Assembly (NCBI GenBank): GCA_973895155.1
Contig: OZ316897.1
Coordinates: 21,303,455-21,367,454, forward strand
Reading direction: 5' to 3'
DNA: 64,000 bases
DNA from: Marsupella aquatica
Lineage: Eukaryota; Plantae; Marchantiophyta
In this document: one piece after another, positions 1,637-59,880 of the stretch
Position numbering within the stretch: position 1 is the first letter of the stretch
Layout: every line of letters begins with the position of its first letter
Position numbers and translations under genes: made by a program
The notes under the pieces: generated by a model
The model's database searches: none
The model's input: only the letters and a program-made list of their open reading frames with translations
Told to the model about the DNA's origin: nothing

Positions 1637-1656
1637 TAGAGTCCCACCCTTGTTTT

Positions 1657-1674
1657 TGGCGCCGCTGCCGGGGA
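1657..1674 (+). promoter_or_regulatory. Primer binding site, tRNA-Asp type
   Basis: TGGCGCCGCTGCCGGGGA, one mismatch from the Athila-type tRNA-Asp PBS TGGCGCCGTTGCCGGGGA. Confidence 0.85.
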
Positions 1675-1780
1675 CAACTCTTTACAGTTTTTGTTGGAGT
1701 GGAGCCACAAGACTTGGAGGTGTGTTTGCAGGTTTGCTGTTCAAGAGAAGAAGGGAGATAAGAAGGTGATTGTGAGTGGC

Positions 1781-30987: not shown

Positions 30988-33900
30988 TGTGGTGCGTCCC
31001 ATGGCTCCCTAAACCCAAGAAACCCCCCAGCTCAAGCCGATTCCCGCAGGTTTCGTGCTTGGCGAGGCCGTTTCCGCGGCTTAGCGGCATGGGACGCTGC
31101 TAACCTTCTACTACTACTATTAACATTTTACACACATATACTGGACAGATCCTTCATCGGGTCATGAGATACGTAGCCGGCCTAATATAGGCCTTCCCTT
31201 GTCTTCCCCTGTCTTCCCCTCCGTCTTGTTAGGTATGTTTGGATTCCGCCGCCGGAATGATCCCCAATAGGCTTGGTTAAGCCGCTAAGACCTCTCTCAG
31301 CTCGACACATCCAACTATCACTCCCCTGCTTACTTTCCTTCCTTCTGTTGATGTGGGCACTCTTCACACAAGTTAATGCGACACACAAATAGCAAAATGA
31401 CTCATTCTGACTGAGTCATACCATGCACTTGCCATACAAACAGTACATCTCATACACAAGTTCTGCGAACTAAGCCGTGAGGCCAACTCTATTCAGCTCT
31501 TAGGCATGAGGAAACATGAATATACACAAGGGTCACTGTATGACTAACCGAGAGCTTCTCGTACTACTTGATCCCAGCCCGGCTGGTGCAAACTAAAAAC
31601 TTGCTAAAGAAGAGGCCCTGAGCTCCCCGCTGCCCAGGTACTTATCCTGGTAGTGGATCCGCCATTCTTTGCATCGTAAGCCTAATCTACCTGACAGTAA
31701 TCTACTTGCCCGAATCTACCTATGTACAGCAAGGCAGGAGCACAAGTGTTGCTCCTACCACTGGAACCGCAATCCCACTAAGCTAAGTGTCAGGGCCGCT
31801 CCTGGTTCTGATCCTAATCCTAAACGTGGAGATCCGCGCCCGCCCTGCCCACTCACGCCTCCTCCCTCCACGTCCGCCCTCCCTAAAAGGAACGGCGCCC
31901 TTGCACCATCACGACACCGGTGGTGGATCCTCAATGGACGCCCCCAACACTTCCTCCTCAGCCACTGCCGTTGGCCCGCCTACTGACAGATTACCTGCCC
32001 TTGACCGAGTCAACTTTCCATCGGCCTGACTGGGTCCACCTTCGGCTTCAGCCTCGACACCGGCCTCGGCAATACCCACGGCTTCGGCCTCAGCCACTCC
32101 CACGGCTTCGGCTTCAGCCACTCCCTCGGCTTCGGCCTCCCCTTCCCCTAGGGTAGTTGGATCCTTAGCCGTGACCCTGTCTGGGGTCGGTGCTGGGTCT
32201 ACCTCCTTGATCACCATGGCCTGTGAAGTCGTATTACTCCTTGACCCTGGAGGTTTCCGCTTCTTCTTCGTTGGTGGCTCGGCAGCTGGTCCCTTCCCCT
32301 TCCCACTTATTTCCGGCACTGGTGCATTTGACGCGGCTTGTCCTTCGGCAATTACCACCCCTGGTAACTGGTTTGTCCCAACGGGAGATGGACCTGCTGC
32401 AGCTAAGCATTTAAATACTGCGGCTTGTTTCTTCAGCCGCTCTGTTTGGTTGTCGGCCCGCCGCTGTAGGTTCTCCATCTTCCTCGTGATTTCCTCCAAC
32501 TCCTCTTGGGTTTCATCCAGGTCCTTACGTGCCCCCTCCAGCTCGTTTTTGGCCTCCTCCTGCTCCCTGTGGGCTTCCTCCAATTCCTTCTTCAAGGTAG
32601 CCCTCTCCTCCTGGGTTGCTCTTAGCTCCTTGTCGAGCTCTGCAATGATGACAGACTCCATCTGGTTCATCTTGGCGTAAGTCTGTTCGAGCATCTCGTC
32701 CTTCTCCCTTAGGTCGGCCTTGAAGCTGGCCGTCAGGGACGCAAGCTCCTGCTGCAGCGCCATAATCCCTTGATAGGATTTCCCTAACTCGACCTCCTTC
32801 TGCTCAAGGGCTCCGCGGATTTTCTCGAGCTCCCCTTTCAACGCCCATTCCTTTCTTTGGGTCTCCGCCATGGCCCGGCTGTTGGCTGTTATGTGGGCCT
32901 CCTCTGTATTCTTCAGCTCTTGCTTCCACTTCTCCCTCTCTTTGATCGTGTCGGCCAACTCTTCCTGCGTCTGAGTCAGTTTATCCTTGATATTCTGATT
33001 ATCAGCCTGCGCGGCGTCCAACTGCCCCTGCATGATGTTCAGCTCATGTCGTTTAATCCGCAGTTCATCTTGGGCTCTCTTGGCCGCCCTTAGATCTTCA
33101 ATCTCGGCTTCCATCCTCCTAAGCCGCCGAATGACCTCGTCCTTCTTGCTTCTCTCTAAAGCCACCGCTTCTTCTAATTGGTGCTTCTCCAACTGCTCCC
33201 TATGAAAAAAGGGTCCTACCTCCAACTCCTCTCCAAAGATGCCGAGCGCAAGTTCCCCACACATCTCACCATACTCCATGGCTCTATTCTTAGTGTAGGT
33301 GGAGTAAGTAGAAGTGATCGGCATCGCCCATCGTGGCCTCTGCTCCCATGCCGTCCTGCGGATCTCTTCAATCGTGGCTAGAGGTTTGCTTCCTTTTTCG
33401 GCTAGCCGCCTGATGTCCTCCGGCCAATCTCCTCCTGGTAAATCCTTTTCCTTAGCCAGGGCGGCCTCTTCCTCCTGCTTGATTCGCTCCTGAAATTCCT
33501 GCACCGTCTGTTTTATGCCGTCGAAGCTCGGGGGAGCAACATCTGGTGGGGGAGACTCAGGGCTACTCTGCTGGTTGGGGTCCCCTCGCACTACCCTTGG
33601 AAGTGTGGGGACAAACCGGCCACAGGTCCTTACTCCTGGAACGTGATGGTCCGACCCATAGCCGGAATTATCATGGCTGCAGTCCTCCACTGCCTCCTCT
33701 ACTTCTTGGACGTCCGGCTTCTCCCTCTCCTCTTCCTCGGTAGGAGCTTTAGGCAATTCTGCCTCAGATTTGGAGCTTGAGGTTCCCACGTACATTCGAA
33801 CACCTGGCTTGGATTCCGGCCTGATTCTCTTCTTGTCTCCAGCAAAGGGGTTTTCTCTTGTGAGCCGGTGTAGGCCTACCTCTGTAGTAGTGTCCTGCAT

Positions 33901-35647
33901 TGTTGCCGTTGCCGTTGTTGTTGCCGATGCCGATTTCTTTTCTTTCTCCAGTAGTTTCAGCAGACTCTGCATGCCTGGTTGCTGCATCGGCAAGTCTTCC
34001 TTCCTGGGCCTAAACACCTGCTCGATCGTAGGACTAACAGGTGGTTGAGGCTTCTCAGCCAACGGCCTCGGCGTTGGAGCTTCCTCGGGTGCCCTTACCT
34101 GCAGGGGAAGTACCGGGGCAAAAGTCTGACCTCTGGCATACCGGCACAACAGCGGCATGTGATAGCCAAGCCGCGACACGCTTCCCATGCCGATTACCTG
34201 CTGCTCCTCCTTTAAGATCTTCTTCAATTGGTTGAGGAGGTACCCGTTGTAGTCCCGGCTTGGGTCTGGCCTTTCTGCCAGATAGACCTATGCTTTGCCG
34301 ATCTCTGCCCTCGGCAAGTTACAATGCATGGTCACCCGCAAGAAGTCGATCATCTCTCCTATGTGCGGGTTGGTGCAGGTGTTCCGGAAGAAGCCATTCT
34401 TCGTTGATGGCCCGGGGAACGACCGGAACTCCTTGTCAGGCAAGGTCTTCCTGGTATCAACTTTGGTCTTATTGCCTATCGGCAAGCCAAACACTTCGGC
34501 AATTACCTTGGGAGTAAGATAGAAATCCTTCCCATATATCCTCGTGCAATTGGTCTCGGGTTCCCATGACCCCACGAATTCTAATAGGTCTGACTCCGGT
34601 ACCTCCGGCTTCAGCCATGGTAATCTTACAAAGGCCTCCAAGCCGGATCCGGCCATGAAGCCTTGGTACTTCTTGGTCTGCATGGCCGTAAAGCATGCAT
34701 CCTCCTCCCGTGCAAAATGTAGTTGCACCTCCACCGGTAGGGTTGCCGCCCAGCCCTTCCAGGTGTCATCCCTGGTTGGAATGGCCTTGATGGGATCGAC
34801 CTCCTCCTCTTCGGCTTCTCCCTGCCCCTTGCTCTGCTACTCGGCTGGCTTCTTTGGTGCCGCCGACCTCGTTCTTTTTGCCGGGGTGGCTTCATCGTTG
34901 ACGGCCCCCTTCCTCTTCATCTCTGCTGCCGTGGAGGTTTCTCCTAGCACCGTTGCCTGGGTCCACCTTTCCGTGCTACCCTTTAATTCCCAGTGTATGT
35001 CATTGCAGTTCTTGATGGCCTCTCGGATGCCGACGACGCTGTCTTTGCAAAACAGAAGATCGTCGAGTTGATTGGAAGTAGGCGTCCACAGGAACTCGTC
35101 CTTGATGAGTTCGCCTCCTAAGAAAGCCGTCTTGTGCAGCTCCCACAATCGAGCGAGCTCCTGCCGTTCTCGAGCTGCCCTTTCTGACTCCTCGTCCTCG
35201 TAAGTCTTGATGTACTCAGTTGCCCGTTCGAACAGGCATCCCCAGAAATGTGCCGCTTGATTGACGTTGCTCATACCCTCCTTAGGTCGATCGTCGGTAT
35301 CTACTCTCTCCCCGAGTGCTTGCCTAAGCAGCTGACAGTAGTTGGCCTCCCGTAGTCGTCTGCCTAGTTTGTGCTCGCAAATGAGCCACCATCTCCTGCA
35401 AGCGCTCCTTACCCCTCTCCTCTGCCGGTCCTTCTTCCCGTTGATCCTTCCTAGCCGCCGACGCTTAACGCGCCCTAACCCTAATCGGGTTTTCACCCTC
35501 AGCCTTACCTCCGGCCTCTGCCCGGGTTCCATGGTTGCCCCTAATTGTTTATATTTTCCTTGTTTTGTCACTATACTAAGGTGTTCCTAGGGTGCCTTCC
35601 TGCTTTACCCACTTAACCGGCCGAGTGATTCCTGTCTAGGCATCACA
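30988..35647 (-). repeat. 5' LTR of gypsy-2
   Basis: TGTGATG...CACCACA on the minus strand; near-identical to 20104-24763. Confidence 0.95.
31909..35571 (-). pseudogene. LTR-encoded accessory protein, 5' LTR copy (two CAG>TAG stops at 34837-34839 and 34288-34290)
   Basis: Three in-frame ORF pieces matching 21025-24687. Confidence 0.85.
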
Positions 35648-43280: not shown

Positions 43281-44204
43281 TCAACACTTCCGAAGAAACC
43301 TAGCATTCCACAATGTATTCATTCCTAACACATTCCGTAAACAGAGTTGTTTCTCTTCTTTGTTGGGCATTGGCAATGTTGCATCACCACAATACACTGC
43401 CTTAACTGATACTCGCACCCAAGGACTCTCAATCATGACACAATGAAATTTATCCTCTCCTGGTAACCCTGTCACTTCACCTCTAGCAACAACTGTAGAG
43501 CGATCCACAACGCTTCGTACTTCTACAGCATCTCCTTTTGAAAACTGCCACACAAAATTGTTAGGACAAAATACTGTCTTGTAGTACTGATTTGAGCATA
43601 TCATCAATTTAAGAACATAAGCCAACTGAAAACAAATTCACCTTTGCTGCTGGATTTGGGGAGAGAATTGGTCCTCGTTCACTAGGTGAGATAGTGATAG
43701 GGGTTGATTTCTTGAATCTCTTTGAAGGCCTAGGTGGTGTAGCCTCTAGTTCCTAAATTGCATTTGACACTATCTATTCATCTGTGACAGCAATCTCATC
43801 ACTCTCACCATTACCAATGCTGCTTTGTACAACGCAAGGTTCCTGCAGTGCTCCCAAATTTGCTTCTCCCATACTTGGCTTTGGCTTCTACCTTGTTAAA
43901 GTATCTGATTTCTCTCGTTGTGATACAGGATTCTCCCCTGAAGAAGCTACCACAAAACCAAACAATGAATGCTTAGAAAACTTCATTCTAAATTGAAAAA
44001 TAAACTATTGCATATGTAATATATTTAGAGTATAAGTTTGTATGTTCTTACCATCACCATCACCTGAGAAAGTAAGAGAACGTTTCCTGCTACTACCTTT
44101 AGGCTCAACCACCACCTTAGTAGCAATTGCATTTGATAATTGCATATGAAACTGATTCTGTTGATTTTGTGCAATGAAAGAGGTCATCATAGATGTCAAA
44201 TTGT
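43281..44204 (-). pseudogene. 3' exons of CACTA TnpA-like gene
   Basis: Last exon VVARGEV...FHCVMI...VRVSV...LPMP...LG...LW resembles the Tnp1/En/Spm C-terminal domain. NLTSMMTSFIAQ continues KLEFKVDNL from 57788 across the MULE. Confidence 0.7.
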
Positions 44205-44320
44205 GAGGAATTGTACGGTGCGAGGAAACAGGAGATTTTGCTAGCGAGGCAACATTGTTAGCGAAGCATTCTGGCGGATACATTTATCTCACATTCCATG
44301 AAAATAATGCCCAAACAGTA

Positions 44321-46757
44321 TGTGACGCCAATGACATGGTCCTTATTTTGTAACCTGATTAAGTAGGTTGCTGTATGCAAGGAGTAGCTATTGATATTGC
44401 ATAACAATTAGCAAGATGGCAAGAATAAGGGCAATCATGGCGTTAAGAGTAGGGAAATAAAAGCTATGTCGCGGGTGGTCGACGACCATATCTCTTTCAA
44501 TATGTCACCAAATCCGGATCTGTAAAGAGCATTGGAAAGATCTGGTCAAGGCGAGTAAAATCGATATAAAACACTCGAGAAACGGAGGTGTATTAAGAAA
44601 GATACGGCCTGATTAGTGTGACGGGTTAACTTGTGGCCGAAATTAGCGAATTCGGCTTCAGTTTCGGGTTAACCCAAGCTCGACCACGGCTTAGCTTATG
44701 TGAGCACGGCTTCAGCTTAGCTCAGGTCAGCACGGCTTCAGCTTAGCTTAGGTAAACACGGTTTCAGCTTAGCTTAGGTAAGCACGGCTCCAGCTTAGCT
44801 CAGGTCAGCACGGCTTCAGCTTAGCTCAGGTCAGCGCGGCCTCAGGTTAGCATAGGTAAGCTCGGGTTCGGGCTAAGCTTAGGCTAGGTTAGCGGACAGC
44901 GGATAGCGGATAGCGGGTAGCGGCCTAACCCGAGACCACGGGTTAGCTCTACTCGGGTTAGATAGGATAGCTAGGTTAGCCGAACTCGGGTTAGCTATGT
45001 AACTCGGGTTAGCGCAGCAGTGAGTACCCCCTCTCGGTTGCGGGGGCATAACTCTCTGTGTATTTGACCAAATCGGCTATAATTGACCTCGTTGGAAAGA
45101 GGAGCTCAAGCCGCTTCCAACGTTGCTATCCACGCAGAAAATGGTTGAATAGAGAAATCGGGAGAGGAGGCGCAAGCTCGCAAAAACCATGGAGGAGGGC
45201 CAAATCCGAAGTACATAGCCAATTCGAGATAGAAATAAAGTTGCGAGTTAGGGTTCAGTAGTTAGAGATAGTGGCGGCTCTGTTAGGGCTGGGATGGGGC
45301 TCCAGCAGCGTAGTATCCACCCATTTGGGCTCAATATGAGAGTATATAGAGCAGCCCCCCGGTAGAGGCAAGGGGGGGGACTTCAGTTGTGTGATCTCAC
45401 TTAGACTGAGCAGCAGGGAGGAGCTCTGTGCAAGCAAGGCTGGACTTGGACGCTGCGTGTTGGGGAGAGCTTGGTTGTGCTATTACTCAAGGAGTAATCA
45501 GCCAAGCTTCACAGCAACGGGTTGCTAGGTTTGCGAGCTGGATTGTGGCTCTTTCTAGTGGGCAGCACAACTGGGTTCTTTTCCCCCGATATAGAGCCTT
45601 GGTGATAGGTGATGTATTGGTGATTGTAAACTGTGGGGAGGATTTCAATTCGATTTGCGGTGGGCACATTAGGGAGGCTGAGATACTGATTAAGGGGCAG
45701 CAGGAGGAGCATTTACAGTTCAGTCTGGCAAGGCTACGTGATCCATGGGGAGTCCCGACCTTTGTCTGGTGGAGAGCACTAAGGGATCTATGGCCAGAGC
45801 TAAGCTTGCAGGGCAAGCGTGAGGCCGGGCCTCATTGCAGTCTGGGGTAGATCGCCGTTAGGCCTGGTACCAGCTTTGAAGTCAAGTCAACTATGCATGC
45901 GTAACTTGACGTTCTGAATTGGAGGTGCGAGATCTGTATGTGCCCCCAAGAATGAAATGCAGTGAAGGAGGTTGAGTTCAGGATTGAGTTTGCAAGGCAA
46001 GTACGGGATTGGTTTGAGTCCAATCTGTCGTCGCAATCTGGAGTGAGCCGGGCTCAGGTTCAGGATTGAGCTTGCATGGCAAGCATGGGGCTTGCGGGGC
46101 AAGCACGTCACAATCTAGAGTAGACAGCCTTCGGGCCTATTGTTCGGATCAAGTGTTCTCAGTGAACTATTGTGCACATCTTTGAATCTAATTGAGTTTT
46201 CCTCTCAGGCCTCATTTCTCTCATGGATGTGTGTGTGTGTGAGGCAATCTGAGTGTATGATGGGACTAGCAGCGCCATTGAGAGGTGTATAGGGTGCATT
46301 GAAGCGGGCTGGGTGAGGACTGTCATAGCTCTGATTGCTGAGAGTGGAATGGCAGAGTGGTGGGGCAATGGCTTAGAAGTCCCTAAGCCAGGAATCAGTC
46401 AGGAGTCACTGGTTTATGGGTATATTCCGGCGGCGGAATAGAAATATACCTATGACAGTAAGCATACGTATAGACCTATGTGCACCGTAGCGCTAGGCCC
46501 TGTGTGTACGGGCCCGATATGAAGACCCCTTATCACCAGAAATATCATGAGCACGGATCTGATTCCCAACCTTGGTTCTTAGGGATTGAGCTTGGGTGAT
46601 GTGTGACGGAGTCTTGTTATGATAGTCTGGTGTTAAGGGCATAAATTGGTGTTTACCGGCCTTCACAGCATCCCTTTGTGATCCTCAGGTACAAGGAGAT
46701 GGTTTTGGCACCCATAGTGACGTCTTTGGTGTTAAGACCCATGTCAATCGCGTGACA
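44321..46757. mobile_element. Probable solo LTR (2437 bp) nested in the MULE
   Basis: Same termini as 14909-18926 (TGTGACG...CGTGACA), flanks CAGTA/CAGTC, and shared motifs CGGTAGAGGCA(A)GGGGGGG and GGAGTCCCGACC. Confidence 0.7.
44703..44858. repeat. 26-bp tandem repeat x6 (AGCACGGCTTCAGCTTAGCTCAGGTC)
   Basis: Seen directly, with decayed copies on both sides. Confidence 0.9.
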
Positions 46758-47453
46758 CAGTCTCAGTTTTCCACCTCTTACAATAATGAAAAGAATATGA
46801 CAATGGAAAATCCTGCATGATTTTCATAAGTATTCCATACTTGAGCCACACACGATTTAATCATCTAAAAAGGATCACCAAAACTAGAAACTCCCATCAA
46901 ATTATGGAACCTCTTTACATTGAAAGTGTGGATCGCCAACAACTTCAAGACAGAAAAACGGTAAGAGTCAACCTCGACCAGTACATCCAGTCCTACTTCC
47001 TCTTACTTGATCAGTCATAAACTTCATCCTCTGATTCATCGGAGATGTCACTACTACTAGGATCGCTACTGGTCTCCCTCTCCGTGGACTCGGCAGACTC
47101 ATCTAAATACTGACGGACTGTCCCCGCCTCATTGTCGATAAACCTTGAACAATCCAGATATCTTCGAGCACCTCTCATGGACCGAAGTCCTTTCGATTCC
47201 CAAGTCAAGATAACAGGATCTTCATCAACCTGCCTCGCCGATGTCTCAGCATAGCACGGAAGAGTAAAAGGCTTCTCAGGAGTAACCACAATGGACTCCT
47301 GGACTTCCCTCCGAAGACGAAATCTCTCCTCAGAAAACTAATCCACCCTCCTATCACTGACGCAACCACCGACATCAGTTGACGAAGAGCAACAAAATAA
47401 AGAAAACAAAAGAAACCAAATAGGGAGTCCGACATCAGAAGAGGCCAAGTACT

Positions 47454-50400
47454 TTACTCCAGGTCGAATTCGTCTTTCTCGCTTGAAGGCCCAGCCTGTT
47501 CATCCCTTGGAATCGTGAACTCATCATCCGACCCAGCGTCTTGATTAACCTTGGCTGGCTGATCCCTAATCTGCTTTGCCTTGCTCAAATGCCTCGCCAA
47601 AACACTGTTTAAAGTTTTTTCTGCACAGCAATGGAGAATGTCCCTGTCTTCAACACCGACAACAAATCTCCCGGAGAATTCTCCGGCAGAAAACGAGCTA
47701 CCGTCACACACAGTCCAGTCAAGGACTATGTCTTTGGGTTTTGTGAGGAATTCCATCACGGCTTGCATGAACCCAATTGAAAGCCTTTTCGATCCAGCAA
47801 CAGCCGCTTCTGGACAAGGGTCAGTCTTAGGGTAACAAACACTCAACATTGACTTATGTCTTGCATCTTTCGAAGACGTCAATGGAACATACGCTGGGTC
47901 TTTAGGAATCTTTGCACTAAATTCCACCCAACAAAAAACATCCAGGATGAGAGTGCACACCTGCATAAAAACCAAAATACATCAGAAACAATGCTAACTT
48001 TGTTAGCGAGCTCGCTAGCATTAACTTAGTCGGAAAATAGAAAATTAACACCTAAACAAGATATGTTTGGTAGCTGAAAATTATAATTTTGTTAGCGACA
48101 TCGCTAGCATTAAAACTCTCAAGAAATTTAAGGGATAACTACCTCAATATCCATATCTGCCCTCCATAAAGGGGTGGACAACAAAACGGTATATTGCTGC
48201 ACATGTTTGAATTTGTTTTTTTGCTCGACTGCCGTAAATATTTGCCTCATGTGATTGAAGTCTGTGCTGTGCAAGACAACAACATATCCGTCGTCTGAAA
48301 GCATTGGTCTCATCACTCCAAAAAATTAATATGAGAGTTTCTCGCTCCAAACATTCCAAGACGGAACCTGTTTGTCTGTAACGCTTGTTCTATGCCCAGT
48401 TGGAAGAGAAATGAATCCCAAATGTGCTCCAATCCCAGCATAAGGCTTTCCATTAATTACGACATGGTTCGGGCACTCTACGCTCTTCGACATCCCAGTA
48501 ATCCATCGATCTCCATCTCCCATCCAAGATGGCCTCACTTTACTTATGCTAATTGAGTTTGCAGTATCGGTCAAATTGCTACGAGCCAGGAAATGTCGTT
48601 GCCCATCCATCTTCAAACCACACATCCAAGCAACACCTTGAGCAACTGAAACTTCCTCATCGTCCGCATCTAAAAGAATCTGGATGTTCCGCTTCCATTT
48701 CAAACGTTTTATACTTCCTAAATCCAATGCGCTCTTTGTTGTGACTTCGGCATCTGGGGACTGAGGTTCCTCACCATCATCTGCTCCACTCTTCAAACTC
48801 TCAGAAGCCGCTCCCTTCCTCCTCTCTGTGAAGCAAAAGACATTAGTGTCTGTATATTCGACACACATCCAGACTTAAAAATAAAAAGTAACATACAATT
48901 AATAGACTTACTTGGCTTTCCGGAAATCTGGGACCCATCTTTGGATTTGTCCTTCAATGCTCCTTTTCTTGGCTTCCGTGCTCGACTCCTATCCACTATG
49001 GCAGCTACACCAAGACAAGCTTTTTCCATCGCCTCGCAACCACCAACTTCAGCATCAGTGGGTGCCAATTTGGACTCGGAGATGTAAGATTCCGGAAGGA
49101 ATCCTCGATTGATCATGTGAAGAGCTGCTTTCTCTGTAGTGTCAAATGTCACAGACCATTTGTTCGAGTCCAAATACCATGGACAATGAAGAACCTCCCA
49201 CTCGCTCAATCTCCTTGGAGCTTCACTTCCCTCGCAAGGAAATATACAATATTCCCCAAACTTATCACTTGTAGGGTCCTCTTTAACCCGGGCTTTAACC
49301 CCGGCTATCCATGGGGAGAAACAGGCTGGGTAGGACCACCAATAAAATTTGTCTGCTACTTCTCTGTCTACAAAAAATCGATACGTGTATCTCTTCGCTC
49401 TCCTCCGAAATAATGTAATGTCTACCTTCTCTCCTGTCTTGGGTGGCCAAATCTGCTTGAAAAAATGAGTTTTCACACGAGTTTGGAAATCCTCAAAATC
49501 CTCCTCAATGTCAAGGATTAGCGAAGCTTTTGTCTTCTCTGAAGACGTAAGGATCCTCGACTCAGGGACAGTAGGCATTACCTCAAAAACAATTTCAGAC
49601 ATGAGGGAAGACGAAATTGACTCGACTTGCTCCCACACTGCCCAACGATGAAGCCAAAGCTTAGTCTCACCATCTGAGAATTGACCTGGATGAAAGAATT
49701 TTTTCCGAAGCTCAGGACGACACTGTGCCTCCAGGAGTGTACATCAGAGCTCTGGGGATAAAGAGGTCACACCAGTGAACAATCGAGCTTGATCAAGACC
49801 ACAAGAAACATTTCCCCTGCCTTTGTCATCTGTTCTCTGGGCCTCCTTTCTCTTGTTCTCGCAGTAGTTATGCATTTCGACACATTTCTTGAAAAAGTCT
49901 CCAAACTCAGGATTTAGTAATGGACCGATCTTTGGAACTTTCACATTCCAATCAGCAAGTTGTTCTTTCATCATGTCATGCATTGCTAAGTCCTGTGCAG
50001 CCTTGGAAAGGGGCTCGCCTTGAGCCTCCTTAAGAGCAAATTTCTTCTTAAGGTCCTCGGTCTACGATGCAATGTTAGCAGCGGATAGAATATAAGTGCA
50101 GGCATCCAACGTCATGTTCTTCGAATACCATGCGGCCTTCCGCAAATTGGCCATCTTCTACTGGAAAAGTTTGTAATTCTCAGCGTCGATGATATCTTTG
50201 TAAATGGATAAGTCATTGTTCAGAATCTTCTGGACGCGTTCAGCCTCCAAAACCCAGGAATTCTCTACATGACATTGAGTTAACCTGCCACAACATGCCT
50301 CATGTTAGCGAGATCGCTAGCTGAAAGTGACCTGGTAAAAATGAAATTTCAGAACTATCTTATCATGAGAAGTCCCACCTGTTCAATGCGTGCATAGCCG

Positions 50401-51154
50401 ACTCGATCTGAACGAAAGAGTTCTTTTCACCCTTAAAGATCTTGCAGACCACTCGAGGATGGTACTTAATATCATCCGGATGTTCCTCCGCCAGTTGGCT
50501 CCACGAATACAATCGGTGGTTTCCATCGAAAACATAGAACATTTTGTCCTTGAGGATCTGGAAAGAAACATGAGAATCACATTCGCGCTCAAACTCCTTG
50601 TTTTGCAACACCCAAATATCATCCCAAGTTTCGCGGATGGCATGTGTACAGATCTGGATTTCTCCATCCTTGTTTGTCATCTGAACGTAAAATCGAGGCG
50701 CATCCTCGATGTAACCCTGCATTTTGAACTCGGACTTCAATGTGTCTATCGCAGTGGAATCCTTCTGCAGAGACCGGACAATCTGCATGTTTCTCATCCG
50801 GCATAGAGGAATTCGGGTGGGAGCCAATGCAAATCCAAACTCATTCACTCCAAACGAGTGAAGATGACGGTTTATGACAACCGTGTAAGGTTCCAAAGCG
50901 CTAGGATCAAACACAAGAGCAACTACGTCTACCGCTGTCACCATCTTGGGCCGCCTTGGAGTCTTCAATCCCGCTGCAAGCGCTTTCTTGTTCGCTGTGG
51001 ACCTAGTTTCTCTCCTTGTCGACTCCCTAGACTGAAACGATCCTCTCAAAGAAATACTCTCTGGAGACAACGATGACTCCATGAAATAAAACCCTTCGGA
51101 GAAGAGTGCTTGAGCCCGAAGACTGCAGCGGCTGCACGCGTCAAAAACGTCCAT
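47454..51154 (-). pseudogene. Spliced gene: ParB/Srx-like N-terminal domain plus C-terminal N4C/N6A DNA methyltransferase-like domain (~1100 aa)
   Basis: Inferred exons 51154-50379, 50284-48912, 48825-48143 and 47960-47454 with GT-AG borders. ParB-like IPLCRM...VRSL...IDTLKSEFKMQGY...FYVFDGNHRLYSW. MTase-like AHLGFISLPTG...RPMLSDDGYVVV...FLTKPKDIVLDWTVCDGSSFSAGEFSGRFVVGVE. Three stops in exon 2 and a frameshift near 48325. Confidence 0.7.
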
Positions 51155-51760
51155 AGAGCACCTCCTTTCGGAGAATTAGGACAGCCGTACAAACTGCTAT
51201 GAACTCCCTCCGAAGCCTTACAGAGTTACGATAGTGAATACTGACAACGATCGACAGTACGATGTAAGGAATAACAGAAATCTCCTGGCAGGGACCACTA
51301 GTTGTACTTTTTGGAAAACATGAAGAACAACCTTCACGACCGATAATCTTATCCAGACAAAATACTCCAGGTGTCCCGTGTAATTTGTACCGTTGACATT
51401 ATGGTACCCGTTGACTATTCCCAACGGAATCCTAACGGTAAACTTCCTCAAAAATCAGTTTGACTTTTTGGCTAGTGAGATCGCTGGCATAAACTCAATG
51501 ACACAGGTATCCTTAAAAGAGTTGAAATCAACGGTTTTCTTGCCATAAAACTATCAAAACCAAGCTAGCGAGATCGCTAGCATGGGAGACGTCCCTATAC
51601 GTTGAGTAAAAGACAAAATAACGGTAAAATCAACGGGAACGAACTGACAATCTGTTCGGATTGTTGTTTCCGTTGGGAAAAACCCAGTTTTGGTCCTACA
51701 AATAGAATTCGTATGGGAGATTCAAAACATAGTGGTTGTATTTTTGTATGCTGAGAAGAG

Positions 51761-54700
51761 ATGATGTCGATGAATTCCAAGGTGGTTTTGGAGCGTAGAA
51801 TGATGGGAGACGTGGTGGTACTCCCAAGTGCCCCTAACTCGTCGGAGGTTAGGGTGACAGAGTCATTCCTTGCAACTCGTTTTGGAATTCCAAAAGATGA
51901 CCTTGTCATGAAGTTGTTTGAGTTGTATTCTCAAAATGGGCCACGGAGTCACGAGTTGAGAGAGGACAGTAGTACTTCCGGGAAGGTCTGGACGCTGAAG
52001 GTTGGATCTTGTGTCGAGGTTCTGTCCAGTAAAGATGGTTTTCCTGATGTCATTTTGGAACCCATGGAATTAGATCCCGTTCATCAAACTCCTATGATTG
52101 ATCTTGGGACGCCTCCCAAAGACAGAGCTCCCGAGGTCATTGAAATATCTCCAGAGAGTATAAGGCAAGACACATCTTGTGGTTCGATGAAGTCACGAGA
52201 TGGTTCCGAACCCGAAGGGTTAGCGACAAATTTGATTGAAAGGACTGGGGATAGCATGACCACAGTGTATCAGATGAGTGCCTATGACGCTTTTCTCAAT
52301 ATCAGTGGAGCGAGTGAACTTGCACAATTTAGAAGAGGGAATCAATGGAATGAATGTCAGGTTTCGACTCTGCCATCGACATACAATGGTAACGTTGTTT
52401 TTGAACTTCCTCCAGTCGAGTGGGGCGGGAGGGGAGGAGGTCTCCAAGATATGGATCGAGAGAAGGACAGCTATCCTTGGACGAGACTAGTGACTACATC
52501 TGCGAATTTGAAGCCAAGGTTTCATTGGGCTGTGTCGAAAGTTTGTTGCGCTGGAATTCTTGAATGCCATAATTTGGGTTGCCGGAAGTTGAAACATACT
52601 GGAGTGAAAAATGACTGCGCTTTCAGAGGGAAAGGGTTGTTGACTGACATCTTTCGTCTTGGAGAGCAAGTGAGTGAGGGAGGACTTGTCTGTGGCTTCT
52701 GTGAAGAGAGGCCTCTCTGTATTTGAGAATGCCCGGCAAAACTGTTGTATGTGTACCCTAAGCAAGGTTTGGAGAGTCACATTTCAATGCATATGTCCAG
52801 ATTGGCTGTGCATATGGGATTCCATGATCACCCTGTTTGGAAGGGAAAATCTCGTTCTACGAGAAAAACAGCGGAAGATGTGGTTTTAGGGGTCCATCGG
52901 TTGAATCCAGTCTCAACTCCCGCACGTCTGAGAAACCAGTCAATTGGGAACCTTGTCTCACTATTGCATCCAGAATCATCGGCTCAGTTGTCGAGAGAAG
53001 AACAACAAGAAATCGGAGTAGTTTCTACCGCTCCAAAGTTCCAACCTATTCTTCGGAGTGTGAAGATGGATAATCCTAAAAAAGGAGAACTTGACTCACT
53101 TCATGAAATGCAATCACGTAACAATTTCCCTTTCGTGCAAAGGTACCTGTTTCCCGGTCAAGGAAACAGAAATGATCGAGCGCATGTATTCAAAATGAGT
53201 ACAAATGGTCCTGGATCGGGTGTGGAAATTTTGAGGAGCATGGAGGCTGGAGGAGCATTGGAAGGTTCGTGGGTCAGTTTTGACGTGATGCATCGTATCA
53301 CTAGTGGATGGTTGACCTTCAGCGCACACGTGTATGACCATAATTACCGCGCTTTGTGTACAATTTTCACTTGCGAGTTGAGAGCCGAAGACATAGAGTT
53401 GCTTGAAACTGCGTGGAGGTTAATGGTAGATGTCGCATCCAAGAATGGAGTGCATAATCCCATTATTGGAGGATTCATAGCAGACAATGCGGAGGCTGGC
53501 TGGATTTCTGTGAGAAGGGTATTTTTTGGAGGTGTCAGAAATCCTCTGAAAGAGCATAGTGATGCTTTCCATCTCTCAATCCCTCAGAAGACACACTTTG
53601 GAGGGGATCAAGGAGGGGTGTCATGCGGAGCACTATAAGATGTGGGAGAAGTTAAGAATTGCTCCAACATACGTCGAAGCATATCGTATCGCCGAAGACA
53701 TTCAAAAATGGTGGAAAGAGGGGAATTGTCACCCTTCCAAGCTTAAATCACTACAAGGGTGGATTTCATGGTGGGTTGTGTGGTGGAGACAATGGGGTAA
53801 CTTTATTCGTGTGGTGAGTAACGGTGAATTCTTTCTGATGAGTTTAAGCTAACGAGATCGCTAGCAATAAAACTTCTTTTCATAAATGTATTTTGGTCAC
53901 CGACTGAAACATTAGACTGTCTCAAAATAGACATATCACTAGTGAATACAAGTGTTAACTCTGCTCATTTTTCAGACGCAAACTGCGAAGGAGTCTGCTC
54001 TGATGCCAAACTGTGCGGGAGCTAAATCTGCTCACGCATCAATGCGTTCCTACCAGCTGAAGAAGAAAATTGGTTTGATTGAAGCCTATGAAGTTGACCA
54101 GAATCGAGCAGCTGGACAGATTGCAGCGTTCACTGCATACTTGGAAGGGTGTCACCGTGGGAATGGTCCTACAATATTTGAGCTGGCCTTCAGAAATGCA
54201 GATACAATGGGGTCTATGGATGCCTATGAGAAGGCATCCAATCTACTATTTGAATCATCTGGAAAATATGAGTTCTATAGAACTGTGCCTTTACATGGAG
54301 ATCTTAGAACAACGTCAGGGAAACGGAAGGGTAGTGCTTCTGCTTCTATTCATGAAAACGATTCTCATAGACATGATAAGATATTGCGCACAGTGGCGTC
54401 GCGGTCTAGTTTGAAAAGAAGAAATCTTTACACAAAATTTGGTAACTTCAGCGGTGCTTCTGATATTGGTGGACCTTCAGACTTTCCTGGCGATGAAGAC
54501 AACCCCACTTGCCATGGACCTTCTCTTCCTCGTGAAGTTATAAATATATCAGATGATGGTGAAGAACTTAGCCGTGGAGATACAACACAGGACCCGAACT
54601 ATGTTGGAGAAATACCACAGCCTCAAAATAATCGGGATTCACCCCGAAGGATCCCTTTTGTTGAAGAGGTTGATGTGACATATGGGACCTGGCACTTGAG

Positions 54701-55538
54701 GCGGAGTGGAAAAGGGAGTGGACCTGTTTGCAATGGACGAGTGGACCGAAGTGTGTTTGGAAGAGATGAGTGCAGGAATCTCATCAAAGAAACTGGAATG
54801 AAGGCATTCCGGGCTGGAGTAGTTGGTGTTGCGATTCACGGATTGAGGTTGTCATCTCCACATTGTCAGCTTCTATACTTCTGTCCGAATAATAGGTGCC
54901 ATAAAACAGGTGGCAAAAGGACTCTTGCCCAGCTTCCGGAACCACCTGAGGCATTGCAAGTCCAACATGGGACCAGGCTGACCCCAACAGAGATTGACTT
55001 TCTTCTTCGAAATGGGATTGAAATCAGAGGATTATCATACTCTGATCCAGCACCGATTGGGTCGTTCTCCTCTCCAAATCGTGTTGACCTCCGAATTGAT
55101 GTGAACTCCTTCCCAGAAAGAGTTGACATTGGTATTCCAAACCGTAGATTCAAGACCCGGAATGGGAAAGGCGTTCGTCAACGTTTCCAGAACACCCCGG
55201 AGCTTCTCAAACGCATTCGATCTACGACTAACGAACATATGAGAGTCATTGGAAGTGAGAAGATATGCCTCGGAAACAGGTGGGGATGGCAATATCTTAT
55301 CGTCACTCACGAGACAGATTCTAAAATTGCACACAAGTAGTGGGTCCAAGTGTGTTGCTTTCCTTCTTGCTCATGTGATGACTTCTACAAGAGACACACG
55401 AGAGGAAGACCCTATATGTCTTGTAAACACCTCCTCTGGGTGTACTTAAACAAGTTCTCACTGAATCTAGACAGAGACGATCTTGTGAAGCAGCCAGTTC
55501 TGACTGTTGCTGAAGTAAGGAGTTTGATTCCGTTGTAG
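51761..55538 (+). pseudogene. Mutator-like transposase with GCM-like zinc domain and C-terminal SWIM finger
   Basis: CAGILECHNLGC...CGFC...ECPA...GFHDHPV (GCM/WRKY-like), WVSFDVMHR...GFIADNAEAG...AFH (MULE catalytic core), CSCDDF...CKHLLWVY (SWIM). Intron 53814-53975. Stop at 52724 and frameshifts near 53575 and 55340. Confidence 0.8.
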
Positions 55539-56448
55539 TGTAGTTGACTTAATCTCTATTATCCGTTGAGGTGAACGTTTCAGCGTCCCTAATTTTGTCG
55601 CCTTTTTGGTTTTCAGAACAGAGGAAAGTCCTCCACCTCACTAATTATATTGTGTATGCAATGTTAGCGAGGGTCTAGTACTATTCTATACGTATCGGCA
55701 ATAGTGTTTATTTTTCTAGCGATGTCTCTGGCATTAAACCCGTAAAGTAAGTTTTAGGTTTCCCGTAAACGGTTTCTTTTTGACCAAGTTCTACATAACG
55801 TAGAGTTCAATAACTCATGTATTTTAATTGTTTTTGGGATATACATTCGAGAAAACAAACCATTTTAGTCACGCATAGTTTTACTAGCGATGTCGCTAGC
55901 AAAACTAGTACTGTAAGTCCAAACATTGCAGTCGGCAGTCTTCTCAAGAAGTTATTTCAAAATGAACAAAGATGTTCTCCCTTACAACTGTGTTGGACAT
56001 TGAGTGTCGAAGAACTTTTTCAGATCCCAGATCTACAAAATAGACACAGTCTACAAAATGTTTATGCCCCTACAACATGGACTACCGTTACTGTTTCCTA
56101 TTCAAGGGCTCGCTGCCTTGTACGCATCGGAGTCAGAGTCGGATACTGTATCATAGTCGGAGGAAGCGAGGATGTTTTCCGTGCTCGCATGTTATCCACA
56201 ACGGAAATCACTCAAGTACCAATAGGCAATATTTACTAGCGATCTCGCTAGCAAGGTATGCACTCATGAAATTGAAAAAACTTCCGAAGCTTTATTCGAA
56301 TATTGTCCAATATTTATCAAAACATCTGTAACTGACAAAATGTCCGTGTCCTACCGATCATTTCATTTTAAGGTCACGGACTTGGCAGAGATTAATTGTA
56401 AAACTACAGGGGTTCGCAACGCGGAGTGATTGTTGTCTAGGGTACTAT

Positions 56449-56877
56449 TCATGGAGATGCTGCCTTGTAGGCATCTGAATCTGTGTCCGAATCTGTATCA
56501 TAATCGAACGAAGCGAGGATGTCGGATGTCCAGTAGTTGTGTATGTCAATGTCCCTCCAGTAAGACTCCTCCTCCTCTCTCTTCCGCTTCTCTGAAACTC
56601 CCTTAGAAATGGATACGTTTGTGCGAGAAGACATTGGTGCTCTGGAAACAACGCTTGAAGTTGTTTCCTTCGGCGGTGCAGGTCGCTGAGTTGAAGCAGA
56701 GGCAACAGGCGGGACCCGACTGGATGATGATCCAGCCTTGAGCGGAGGGGTAACACTCTTCCTTGCCGGAGGAGAGCTTGGTGGTGAGTCCACTGGGCCG
56801 TCAGTTTCGGCGTTGTAGCGGCGGACCTCCAGAACCCATTTGGGTTTTGGAGCGGAAGGGTCATCATTTTTTGCCAT
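56449..56877 (-). CDS. Hypothetical 142-aa Pro/Ser-rich protein inside the MULE
   Basis: ATG-initiated ORF, GC-richer than its flanks, with basic EKRKRE and an acidic tail. No recognisable domain. Confidence 0.35.
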   Translation of the reverse strand: MAKNDDPSAPKPKWVLEVRRYNAETDGPVDSPPSSPPARKSVTPPLKAGSSSSRVPPVASASTQRPAPPKETTSSVVSRAPMSSRTNVSISKGVSEKRKREEEESYWRDIDIHNYWTSDILASFDYDTDSDTDSDAYKAASP

Positions 56878-57787
56878 TTATGTCTGTAACAAACGCTTCT
56901 GTGTATCAGATTACTTTCTCAACATGTGTTTACCAAATAGAAACAGTCACATTCAAAACATCCAAGCTCATCAAGTCAAAACGCGCAAAACTACGAGAAG
57001 GAAAAAGAGAACTGGGAAAACCAGACTTTCTCATGAACAATAATACTATTTGTTGTGAAGAGGTCTTCCCGTATCAAACTTACATCTCTTTGTGCGACAA
57101 AAACTTTGCAAGAATGCGACACACCCGAGAACACCAGATCCCCTCCTCGCCCGCGGATATGACAACACAAGCTCAATTGAAGTTACTCTGCGATGCGAAG
57201 ACGATCACGAAAGAGTGAGGAGACGATGAAAGTCAAATAATGAGAACACTGTTAGGAATGGAGATGAGTCGAGAGGTCCGAATGACATATAGTGCATTTT
57301 CGGAGCCTCAGATCCTCTCAAACAGTTTCGCGTTTCACGCTTCACTCATGAGGAAGGGGACATTGGATTCCGTCGTGATATGATACGGCTTAGTGCTGTT
57401 GCTGCAACGGTTTACACCCATGATTACTAATGAGTGATTTTCGTGTGTCATGACCGCACGGAGTATTTCGTGCGAGAATGATGGGCAGAGTTATGGCTAG
57501 CAACTTCGCTGGCCTGATGTACTGTAGAATTATATGTTTAATTATGGTGCCGTCGACGACCGTTCGTGTCCAGGGAATACATAATATGTACCAATGCATC
57601 GTCGGGGTCGCTTTTTAAACCCAACGGGAGTTAAAATAAATAGGTGGAATAGAAGGTTCCTTTTAGGCTAGCGAGTGTCACTTTTTGCTAGCAAGGTTGT
57701 TTTCGTGCCAAATTTTGGGTATTCCAAGGAGAAAATGATCCCGTGTGAGGAAATTTTTTACTGTTTCCTCGCACGCTACAATGACCC

Positions 57788-59880
57788 TCAAATTGTCCAC
57801 TTTGAACTCAAGCTTGGTTAAATTCTCCACAGACTGTTCAAGCTTGAGTAATCGAGCTGGTTCCTCAATTGTAGTTTCCCTGGACAATGGAGTCTACATA
57901 CACAAACACACCATACAATGTCAATCATCAATGATAATTTGAACATCATGGATAACTGATAATCAAAATTGAATATATACATAGGTTTTCATTACATACC
58001 GCTGATCCATGTGCAGATCCAATTCCAACAAAACTACTGCCTCGATGTTCACCACTGCCCATAGATGGACTGATCTGCACTGGGGGGACTGGACTACTAG
58101 ACACAAGTTTTGATATAACAGGGCTCATCATTCCTTTTGCTTTCTGGAAACACATAATCACATTCAAAGCAATTAGAATATTAATGAGAACTCATCATGT
58201 CATTGTTTATTCCTATACTAGATAAACACTTCAATTCAAATGACAATCTAGACCTGTGGTGAGATGGACCATCTGAAGATTCTTACCAATTTTTTTTCTG
58301 CTCCAGCAGCCCCTCCTCTTCCAAAATGCTCTTTGTTCACCACTTCTGCCCTCCTTGCTTTCATCACAACACTCCTTGCAAGCAAAGTAGGACTATCAAA
58401 ATGATCCACCGGTCGTGCCCATTTCAATGGGTCAACATATTGAGGTCCTGGTTTGGAGCGATCATGTTTACATACATCCTTCCAATAAATATTTAGTTTG
58501 TGACGTTCTCTTTTCAATAACGTCCGACAGTGACTAATAAATTTCTTGTCAGACACTGACTGCTTATCTAGATACTCCCAATCTGCCTCCATCAATTTTT
58601 GCACATCCTCAATTATGTTTGGATCTTGTTTGTTCCAATCAGGTTCTGATACATCAAAAAGCCTCAAGACATTGGCACGTAGCTCCTCCAATCCAATATG
58701 GTTTATTAGGATGAGAATCATCAATATCATTGTCATGAATCTGAAAAAAACACCACAAATGATAGTCATCAACATTGGGAATGAAACAAACACCCAATTG
58801 TTTCTGAGTACACGAATTATAGGCCACAATGTGAAATGTGCAATGAAAATCTTACCGTTATCAATTTTCCCTTCTTATTGTCAGCCCTTCTTGCACTACC
58901 GGTTCTTTGAAATTGTTTCTTGGCTTGCCTAGATTCCCTACGTTGCTCTGTTGCAGTCTTTCTTTCCTCTACATACACAATGAGCATCCAATATTGATCA
59001 TCCACAATTGCAAAATGAGGGACAAGAAATATTACAATATAATACCTAGGAGGCTTCATTGAAATTGACTTACCTGAACCCTGACTGGATGTCATTACTG
59101 CAGAGTGTCCAGATTTTCCAATCGATGTTGATGGAACCACCACTCTACACATGCAAACCACTGAAGTTTTGAGTCCAACATTCATATAGATCAACATTGA
59201 AAAATACATTGAAAATCTTTGAAATTACTTACATTCAAATAGCTGGCCAGTCACAAGGTCTTTGTAACATTGCACCATGCCACTCATGGAAGGTCCAACC
59301 TTTGTAGGGGTTTCTTTTGCATCTGCCAAGCTCTTAGATGGAGGTTGCAGATGTTCCTGTCCAGATCAAGTTAAAACCAATGTTATTAAACAGAATCACT
59401 ACCAATGTCTATAGTTTCCTCATAATGTTGGTGAAATGTAATAGGAATCTCACGTTGGATGAACTTTCTGGTTTCTCATCTTCACTGTACTCAGCATCAG
59501 TGTCATAATCTGATTCAGAGCCCTCATCACCAGACTCTGCCATACTCACTGAGGCAATTCTTGATAGTCTGGAACTCTGTCTCCTCTGTGTGGTAACCTC
59601 ACTTCTAGGAGTTTGACGTGCACTTGTTTCCTTCTTGCCCCCTACGGTCTGTGTTGCACCCAGTCTACATCAGAGAATATCAATTTATGAATGACAAGTA
59701 CCCAAAACCAACTAATATTGCTGATGAGCAATGTTAACACATCTTTGCACATTCAAAACAACATGCAAGATTATACTCACATGAAATTGAAATTTGATCC
59801 AAATATCTCCCTAAATTTTCTATTGTTGGCTGCTACCTTCTGATTTCGTTCCTCCTCATATGGAGGTATTCGCTGCATTC
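57788..59880 (-). pseudogene. 5' exons of CACTA TnpA-like gene
   Basis: Multi-exon region. W...LKRERHKL...P..VDPLKWARPVDHF...ARRAEV...HFGRGG resembles En/Spm TnpA-type proteins. Exon limits approximate. Confidence 0.6.

Follow-up and report, generated by a model that had tools for sequence, protein, structure and literature searches.

A Mutator-Like Element With Two Divergent Genes

The 64-kb window analyzed here, a stretch of 64,000 nucleotides from contig OZ316897.1 of the liverwort Marsupella aquatica, contains at 44205-57787 a Mutator-like DNA transposon that carries two head-to-head, intron-bearing genes separated by a spacer of 606 bp (Table 1; positions are those of the window). One encodes a transposase. 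The other is an accessory (cargo) gene, encoded divergently, for a protein of approximately 1,100 amino acids (aa) that is predicted to combine an N-terminal domain of the ParB/Srx fold with a C-terminal domain resembling DNA methylases. Ten copies of a palindrome are distributed over the non-coding DNA of the element.

We are highly confident that 44205-57787 is a single DNA transposon. Its terminal inverted repeats (TIRs) of 27 bp are imperfect, with 22 of the 27 positions complementary and the inner 14 identical, and the same 9-bp target-site duplication (TSD) stands outside both of them. Logan contigs of four public runs (X1, X3, X5, and X6) were mapped onto 43500-58500, and three of the runs (X1, X5, and X6) each supplied one contig with an empty site, which joins 44195 to 57788, omits 13,592 bases, and has 9 letters common to both sides. 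The flanks themselves are repetitive, so these empty sites belong to paralogous copies of the flanking repeat. The joints establish that the unit was inserted as one piece and that 9 bp were duplicated, which bears out the original prediction of a bounded unit with these ends. A TSD of this length is usual in the Mutator superfamily (8-11 bp, typically 9), and the empty-site contigs share exactly 9. TIRs of 27 bp are short for classical Mu, yet lie inside the range of Mutator-like elements (MULEs). An exact 10-mer, GTCGACGACC, which occurs once near each end, was dismissed as being within chance for a 64-kb window.

The prediction had also taken the whole of 44205-57787 as one element. The boundaries stand, but the segment 44315-46757 is foreign: it is a very abundant, non-autonomous repeat that lies outside the Mutator-like element proper, which therefore measures approximately 11.1 kb. 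Other copies lack this segment, as seen in joints of 44314 to 46757 (X1, two contigs) and of 44315 to 46761 (X3, one contig), and its summed contig depth is 10-100x that of the host element. Its own ends form imperfect inverted repeats of about 18 bp, and its tandem array (26 bp x 7.5 copies) occupies 44689-44883. Contigs that match the unit at 80% identity or more number 5,028 in X1, 10,247 in X3, 471 in X5, and 1,217 in X6; with thousands of contigs at 80-99% identity, the element is a member of a multi-copy family. The summed contig depths of the accessory and transposase parts were similar in the four runs.

A word-indexed search with the transposase recovered 11 relatives at E <= 1e-3 (E from 1e-97 to 8e-30), one of them from Riccia sorocarpa. 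In the full-length relative P0009, the motif TTNLAETKH is followed by a SWIM finger recognized by Pfam (PF04434; 22.8 bits, cut-off 19.6), and the window transposase aligns to P0009 through CSCDDF..CKH at 55341-55517; the window SWIM fragment by itself gave no Pfam match. The nearest named ESM-Atlas clusters are all annotated with MULE and/or SWIM or related ZSWIM families (scores 0.90-0.80), and serve only as a lead. The Pfam MULE family (PF10551) was not matched at E <= 1 by the ORFs (open reading frames) of the window or by the 11 relatives, and Pfam scans of 14 and then of 6 ORFs of the element returned nothing at E <= 0.01, with only chance-level rows at E <= 10. No relative was found when IMG/VR was scanned with the transposase alignment. 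The assignment to the Mutator superfamily rests on the SWIM finger, the relatives and clusters, and the 9-bp TSD; on the same grounds, and without a Pfam MULE match, the transposase was correctly named in the original prediction. The order of its motifs is D..D..E-like, with NxxE(S/T)xH in the relatives, which suggests a DDE core of the MULE type. The N-terminal region is rich in Cys and His and is conserved.

This copy of the element is dead, as had been proposed. The transposase gene is interrupted by a TGA stop at 52724-52726 and a TAG stop at 55338-55340. In addition, 2 bp are deleted after 53571, where TC is present in both covering X1 contigs and TT in one X3 and one X6 contig, and the Glu at a catalytic position has been replaced by Lys (NCAGAKSAH, vs. 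NSTGAESVH in the related metagenome locus L002 and TTNLAETKH in P0009). The accessory gene has at least one in-frame TGA and a degenerate methylase motif I.

The Accessory Protein and Its Relatives

A phmmer search with exon 1 of the accessory gene against 1.84 billion representatives gave 244 relatives with E <= 1e-3, of which 84 had E <= 1e-10. The long ones among them, all hypothetical proteins, come from Adiantum and from Riccia sorocarpa (up to 1,207 aa), the latter a relative of the model liverwort Marchantia. These proteins also align to the downstream ORFs of the window, and the accessory gene is therefore one long spliced gene, in line with the divergent spliced gene of the original prediction. 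In another copy, represented by the Logan ORF P0137, the ParB exon is joined directly to the methyltransferase (MTase) exon; thus the two domains travel together in that copy too. No close relative was detected in 185,579 prokaryotic species genomes scanned with the alignment of the ParB domain, nor in IMG/VR scanned with the accessory alignment.

Structural modeling points to a ParB/Srx fold in the N-terminal domain. An AlphaFold2 model of exon 1, built on 150 sequences, has a predicted local distance difference test (pLDDT) score of 95 or more over about residues 100-260. Its top Foldseek matches in the PDB are ParB, Noc, PadC, KorB, Srx, and SbnI (best E 0.063, probability 0.98). With VIA-align, a search independent of Foldseek, only 15 of 48,161 chains reached Z >= 2, and the eight best (Z 7.7-5.0) share the ParB/Srx fold without exception. 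Matches in BFVD are phage ParB-like proteins, one of them a phage "DNA methylase." The scores are modest and the methods agree totally; on these models, the domain is of the ParB/Srx fold, which gives the ParB-like motifs noticed earlier a structural counterpart.

At the level of sequence, the position of the P-motif (GxxR) is occupied by D217, G218, N219, and H220; 25 sequences hardly vary at these four residues, and in most of them R comes next. The motif is DGNHR (DGNHRL in the window), not the GERR of canonical ParB. Weak sequence matches are confined to the DGQHR/DndB branch, with Pfam DndB in 3 of 150 members and TIGR03187 (DGQHR) in 5 of 25, far below the cut-offs. Pfam ParB_N, helix-turn-helix (HTH), and dimerization domains found no match in the accessory protein, and nothing meaningful emerged when the PDB was searched by sequence, either with the ParB exon or with profiles A1, A2, and A5. 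Given the DGNHR motif, the restriction of weak matches to DGQHR/DndB, and the lack of an identified HTH, the picture of a CTP clamp that spreads along DNA is speculation.

The C-terminal domain is, judging from the sequences of the relatives, PF01555-like (N6_N4 DNA methylase). Sixteen of the 30 members of the MTase-domain alignment match PF01555 at E <= 0.01 (best E 1.9e-7), a precomputed PF01555 call exists for 4 of 26 Riccia paralogs, and three Riccia proteins scanned singly scored 23.7-26.2 bits (cut-off 26.7). The accessory exons of the window have no PF01555 match of their own; they align to the C-terminal MTase domain of the Riccia proteins. A protein search with the MTase-like exon of the window yielded no match at near length. 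The best PDB matches of the MTase-domain profile are DpnA and CcrM (E 0.04-0.05), and the order of the motifs is that of the beta class, with IV before I. The S-adenosylmethionine (SAM) motif I (FxGxG) reads FAGGWGAT in 9 of 24 aligned rows, with close variants in most other Riccia paralogs; in the window it has degenerated to WTVCDGSS.

A Palindrome Restricted to Non-Coding DNA

Allowing three mismatches or fewer, GCTAGCGANNTCGCTAGC has 10 matches in the window, all within 48002-57513, where chance would give 0.11; none of 100 shuffles reached 10. Seven of the 10 have no or one mismatch, and T/A flanks extend the unit to a 20-bp palindrome of about TTGCTAGCGA-NN-TCGCTAGCAA. All 10 lie outside the mapped exons, although non-coding DNA makes up only 3,792 of 11,140 bp (P ~2e-5 under uniform placement). 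The accessory introns hold three of them (two in 47962-48142 and one in intron 1) and the transposase intron holds one; the shared promoter has two, and the remaining four are in the 3' arm. At least eight clear copies of a 20-bp palindrome confined to non-coding DNA had been predicted, and the full count exceeds this number. In addition, half-sites GCTAGCGA/TTGCTAGC occur near both ends of the element, at 44238-44247 and at 57667 and 57685.

The palindrome also recurs in a related element. L002 is the closest of 28 metagenome loci with transposase relatives, and its transposase core is 64% identical to that of the window in amino acids. In the homologous transposase intron of L002, ATTGCTAGCGCCGGCGCTAGCAAT is present three times, at spacings of 84 and 90 bp; these copies have the same half-site as the window palindrome and differ from it in the inner bases. 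With blastn, the L002 intron and the window intron could not be aligned outside the palindromes. The middle copy (L002 1170-1235) is the center of a 58-bp perfect palindrome (28 + 2 + 28), whose cruciform or hairpin potential is well beyond that of a protein site.

Other family copies help to define the unit. The T of the window at 51476 is private to it; C is found in 14 of 14 contigs of X1, 13 of 13 of X3, and the single one of X5, and restores GCTAGCGA, that is, a perfect left arm.

Table 1. Positions of the parts of the element and of its flanking duplications.
Feature	Position	Strand	Content or basis
Left TSD, TCAAATTGT	44196-44204		Sequence and empty-site joint with 9 common letters
Left TIR	44205-44231	+	Inner 14 bp GTGCGAGGAAACAG, same as right end
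Subterminal half-sites (TTTTGCTAGCGAGG, TTGTTAGCGAAG)	44236-44266
Nested 2.44-kb high-copy TIR element with 26-bp tandem array	44315-46757		Joints, depth, own ends
Accessory (cargo) gene	47011-51154	-	ORFs and alignment to long relatives
Accessory exon 1	51154-50379	-	Predicted ParB/Srx-fold domain, DGNHR; 270-aa ORF
Accessory intron 1	50284-50378	-	One palindrome, 50304-50321
Accessory middle region	about 50283-48793	-	In-frame TGA at 49744-49746
Accessory MTase-like exons	48874-48326, 48389-48143, 47961-47454	-	SLPTG at motif IV position in 48874-48326; degenerate motif I WTVCDGSS in 47961-47454
Accessory intron	47962-48142	-	Two palindromes, 48002-48019 and 48091-48108, 89 bp apart
Accessory last exon	47337-47011	-
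Shared divergent promoter region	51155-51760		Two palindromes and eight AACGG/CCGTT motifs
Promoter palindromes	51471-51488, 51564-51581		93 bp apart
Mutator-like transposase gene	51761-55517	+	ORFs, relatives, alignments
Transposase exon	51761-53814	+	Zn-finger region and DD part of core
Transposase intron	53815-53975	+
Transposase-intron palindrome	53848-53865
Transposase exon	53976-55517	+	Motif NCAGAKSAH; SWIM-type CxC..CxH at 55341-55517
3' arm	55715-57513		Four palindromes; more half-sites at 57667, 57685
3'-arm palindromes	starts 55715, 55883, 56235, 57496
Right TIR	57761-57787	-	Inverted-repeat pair with left end
Right TSD, TCAAATTGT	57788-57796		Sequence and empty-site joint

Possible Role of the Accessory Protein

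The accessory protein, through its ParB/Srx-fold and PF01555-like domains, would bind the palindromes in the non-coding DNA of the element as a dimer and, once bound, would act on its own element in cis. We favor this reading tentatively, as something possible rather than probable. The conserved 14-bp TIR core is not repeated inside the element and has no likeness to the palindrome, from which we infer that the accessory protein, and not the transposase, is the reader of the palindrome. ParB-family proteins typically read palindromes, and the two sites in the shared promoter count in favor of the model. The ParB-like module may bind a nucleotide triphosphate of some kind. The target may be the shared promoter or the chromatin of the element, and the effect either anti-silencing or self-regulation in the manner of KorB or DndB.

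Several observations weigh against this reading, or against parts of it. The palindromes are candidate sites of the accessory protein, in which no DNA-binding (HTH) domain could be recognized beyond the ParB-like fold. Its middle region of about 600 aa has no match in Pfam or the PDB, and, among the listed public runs that contain the stretch, none is recorded as RNA. The gene is not universal in the wider clade of transposases: an accessory match is missing from all 28 metagenome loci with transposase relatives, most of which are too short to tell, and L008 and L025, which have sufficient upstream DNA and transposases about 30% identical, are without it. Among family copies (40 of 58 rows listed), 6 places vary in 36 bp of palindrome vs. 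33 in 285 bp of surroundings; the palindromes are thus not visibly less variable than their flanks, that is, there is no clear signal of constraint, and the changes within them are mostly CpG transitions. As a side observation on L025, a different 24-bp perfect palindrome, GACCCTCTCGGATCCGAGAGGGTC, lies upstream of its distant transposase relative (285-640), twice within a 321-bp repeat.

The palindromes might be read by other proteins or by none. According to one alternative, which we regard as somewhat unlikely, they are subterminal and internal enhancer-of-transposition sites bound by the transposase, or sites of a host factor, while the accessory protein works without them, for instance as a general anti-silencing or nucleic-acid-modifying factor. 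The half-sites adjoin both TIRs, at a distance of 35-120 bp, which is the usual place of transposase-binding subterminal repeats; the conserved Cys/His-rich region of the transposase could bind DNA; and the missing DNA-binding domain of the accessory protein speaks for the same alternative. It fits less well with a TIR core that is unlike the palindrome and does not recur internally, with the position of most full palindromes in introns and promoter, far from the ends, and with the textbook preference of ParB-family proteins for palindromes. It is also conceivable, though very unlikely, that the palindromes are by-products without a protein partner, i.e., a hairpin-prone unit spread by local tandem duplication. 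Pairs have spacings of 89 and 93 bp in the window, and of 84 and 90 bp in L002, neighboring copies share arm variants and flanks (repeat families D2-D4), one L002 copy centers the 58-bp palindrome, and no excess conservation is seen among copies. However, the same half-site has been kept in the same intron of elements whose introns are otherwise unalignable, and the 9.5 kb over which the copies are scattered include at least six distinct non-coding compartments.

Another question is whether the protein methylates DNA. That it is an active methyltransferase for N4 of cytosine (N4C) or N6 of adenine (N6A), loaded at the palindromes by a ParB-type CTP clamp and marking the element, appears unlikely to us. 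The modeled ParB/Srx fold, the PF01555 homology, the beta-class order, and a motif I that looks intact in Riccia are all compatible with it; fusions of ParB with N6_N4 methylases are common in phages (PMC12704722), and the same hypothesis is in print for algal transposons (PMC12477816), as far as the accessible parts of these papers show. However, the catalytic signature (D/N/S)PP(Y/F/W) is present in none of the 21 sequences that have residues at the motif IV position, and nowhere in the accessory frames of the window. At this position, 19 Riccia paralogs have D-[LM]-[PS]-[ST] and the window has SLPT (one row is misaligned). The Pfam matches cover only about positions 166-218 of the 221 of the PF01555 model, and the AlphaFold2 model of the MTase domain (30-row alignment, 27 from Riccia; pLDDT 39) is unusable, which leaves the fold without structural confirmation. 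The affinities of the ParB-like domain are with the DGQHR/DndB and Srx branch, and other members of the ParB fold bind ATP or GTP, according to the accessible part of one survey (PMC12704722). Moreover, between a third and a half of the summed contig depth shows C-to-T decay at the CpGs of the palindromes, so these CpGs were not protected over time. Of the earlier reading, a PF01555-like domain is supported in the relatives. Methyl transfer by the accessory protein is doubtful on its sequence: since the motif IV position lacks the two-proline/aromatic signature, we think that ordinary N6A/N4C methyl transfer is less likely than binding of SAM or DNA without catalysis. Because the loss of the DPPY motif is conserved, one may ask whether these proteins are methylases in function.

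Relation to Known Systems

Accessory proteins of the ParB-methylase type are on record from transposons of green, red, and brown algae; in the accounts available, their function is a proposal. In Ectocarpus, the 21.5-kb transposon Sola1-1_Ec32 encodes, opposite its transposase, a ParB-like plus DNA-methylase protein of 1,104 aa, which its authors propose to bind and epigenetically modify its own element (Genome Biol 2025, PMC12477816). The original prediction was thus not new as an idea: as far as the accessible text goes, both the architecture and the hypothesis were already in print for algal transposons. Likened by description and not by sequence comparison, the two systems share one long protein (1,104 aa there; approximately 1,100-1,200 aa here and in Riccia) with ParB-like and N4-methylcytosine/N6-methyladenine (4mC/6mA)-type methylase domains, on the strand opposite to the transposase. 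They differ in the host element, which is a Sola1 in a brown alga there and Mutator-like in a land plant here. The description of Sola1-1_Ec32, in its accessible part, reports neither dispersed palindromes nor a degenerate catalytic motif.

In red algae, the giant Plavaka (EnSpm) transposons encode PAG2, which combines PF01555 with SET, and PAG3, which combines a ParB-like domain with a 2-oxoglutarate (2OG) oxygenase (Bostrychia paper; bioRxiv 10.1101/2025.02.11.637652, later Curr Biol 2025). PAG3 is neighbored by arrays of inverted repeats, the authors propose self-binding, and the PAG cassette is also found on Zisupton, Fanzor-encoding, and Chondrus Mutator elements (10.1101/2025.02.11.637652). 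Judging from the available text, the likeness lies in PF01555 methylase and ParB-like domains carried by DNA transposons with inverted repeats in the element. In contrast, the two domains are on separate proteins with SET or 2OG there and are fused here, where neither a SET nor a 2OG domain was found in the accessory protein; and the repeats form tandem arrays beside the gene there, whereas here they are scattered through the introns, the promoter, and the 3' arm.

Similar parts are known from phages and plasmids. A survey of ParB-CTPases describes fusions with N6_N4 methylases as enriched in phages, and ATP or GTP as bound by non-canonical members (PNAS 2025, PMC12704722). Within what this source makes accessible, the phage and prophage fusions have the same two domains in the same order, and a phage "DNA methylase" is among the structural neighbors of the accessory protein. 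They differ from it in being shorter, in having no middle region of about 600 aa, and in having a full PF01555 by Pfam definition. The best structural match of the modeled ParB-like domain is KorB of RK2 (Z 7.7, root-mean-square deviation 2.6 A, 95 residues aligned). The weak DGQHR/DndB sequence matches and the two operator-like palindromes in the shared promoter recall KorB and DndB, which are transcriptional repressors of the ParB fold; unlike these, the accessory protein has no HTH that could be found, and its setting is eukaryotic.

VANDAL21 of Arabidopsis is also a Mutator-like element, whose accessory protein VANC21 is thought to recognize short motifs accumulated in its own non-coding DNA. 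VANC causes loss of methylation, and its motifs are not long palindromes. No ParB-like or methylase-like domains are known in VANC. The likeness, a Mutator-like element with an accessory protein and motifs in non-coding DNA, would be a functional analogy only. A broader claim would be that Mutator elements of land plants (liverworts and ferns) encode their own sequence-directed epigenetic device, in which a nucleotide-switched ParB-type binder with a divergent methylase loads at intron and promoter palindromes and writes a mark other than 5-methylcytosine, or shields the element from host silencing. We consider this improbable at present; if true, a strategy like that of VANC would have arisen a second time and independently, from parts of phage type.

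By analogy, the element is a land-plant, Mutator-borne member of the algal-type class, with both domains in one protein that diverges from the transposase. In land plants, we found no literature on this arrangement, only algal reports; the supplements of the algal papers, which possibly list streptophyte members, were outside this search. Dam-carrying retrotransposons are stated to be absent from Streptophyta in the accessible part of a 2026 preprint. The present family extends the class to land plants, with many paralogs annotated in Riccia sorocarpa and Adiantum, and adds to it a sharply defined, element-specific palindrome at known positions, which has a variant form in a related element. 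The claim that such an accessory protein reads its own transposon thereby becomes directly testable. The interpretation is plausible and, as far as the accessible literature shows, already published as a hypothesis for algal elements.

Other Features of the Element and of the Window

The promoter region at 51390-51670 has eight AACGG/CCGTT motifs in 280 bp, whereas the window averages 0.44 per 300 bp. Several of the eight read TCC(C/T)AACGG, which is presumably reminiscent of the plant MYB3R/MSA cell-cycle element. The observed/expected ratio of CpG is approximately 1.0 in the non-coding parts of the element (left tip, promoter, and 3' arm), falls to 0.66-0.73 in the coding parts, and is lowest in the repeats that flank the element (0.26-0.45). 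The high non-coding ratio may reflect CpG-bearing motifs, a young insertion, or past protection from methylation. The 3' arm also contains a Ser/Pro-rich ORF of 142 aa (56449-56877, minus strand) without a Pfam match, which could be a third small gene or simply noise. A stretch of 78 bases that includes the 3' end of this ORF is duplicated (56098-56175 and 56445-56522; 347 bp apart, 79% identity).

The window as a whole is repeat-rich and of plant type, with Ty3 and copia retrotransposon genes and CACTA-associated DUF4216/DUF4218 ORFs. A Ty3-type retrotransposon copy at 1640-7759 looks intact, with an unbroken gag-pol ORF of 2,039 aa (capsid, zinc knuckle, reverse transcriptase, RNase H, and integrase). 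The first 14 kb of the window have a strong positive GC skew. Two long ORFs on the minus strand (21025-23712 and 31909-34287; 895 and 792 aa), which have no Pfam match, lie beside Ty3-type pol and gag ORFs; they may represent an accessory ORF, so far unannotated, of a retrotransposon that is duplicated or nested.

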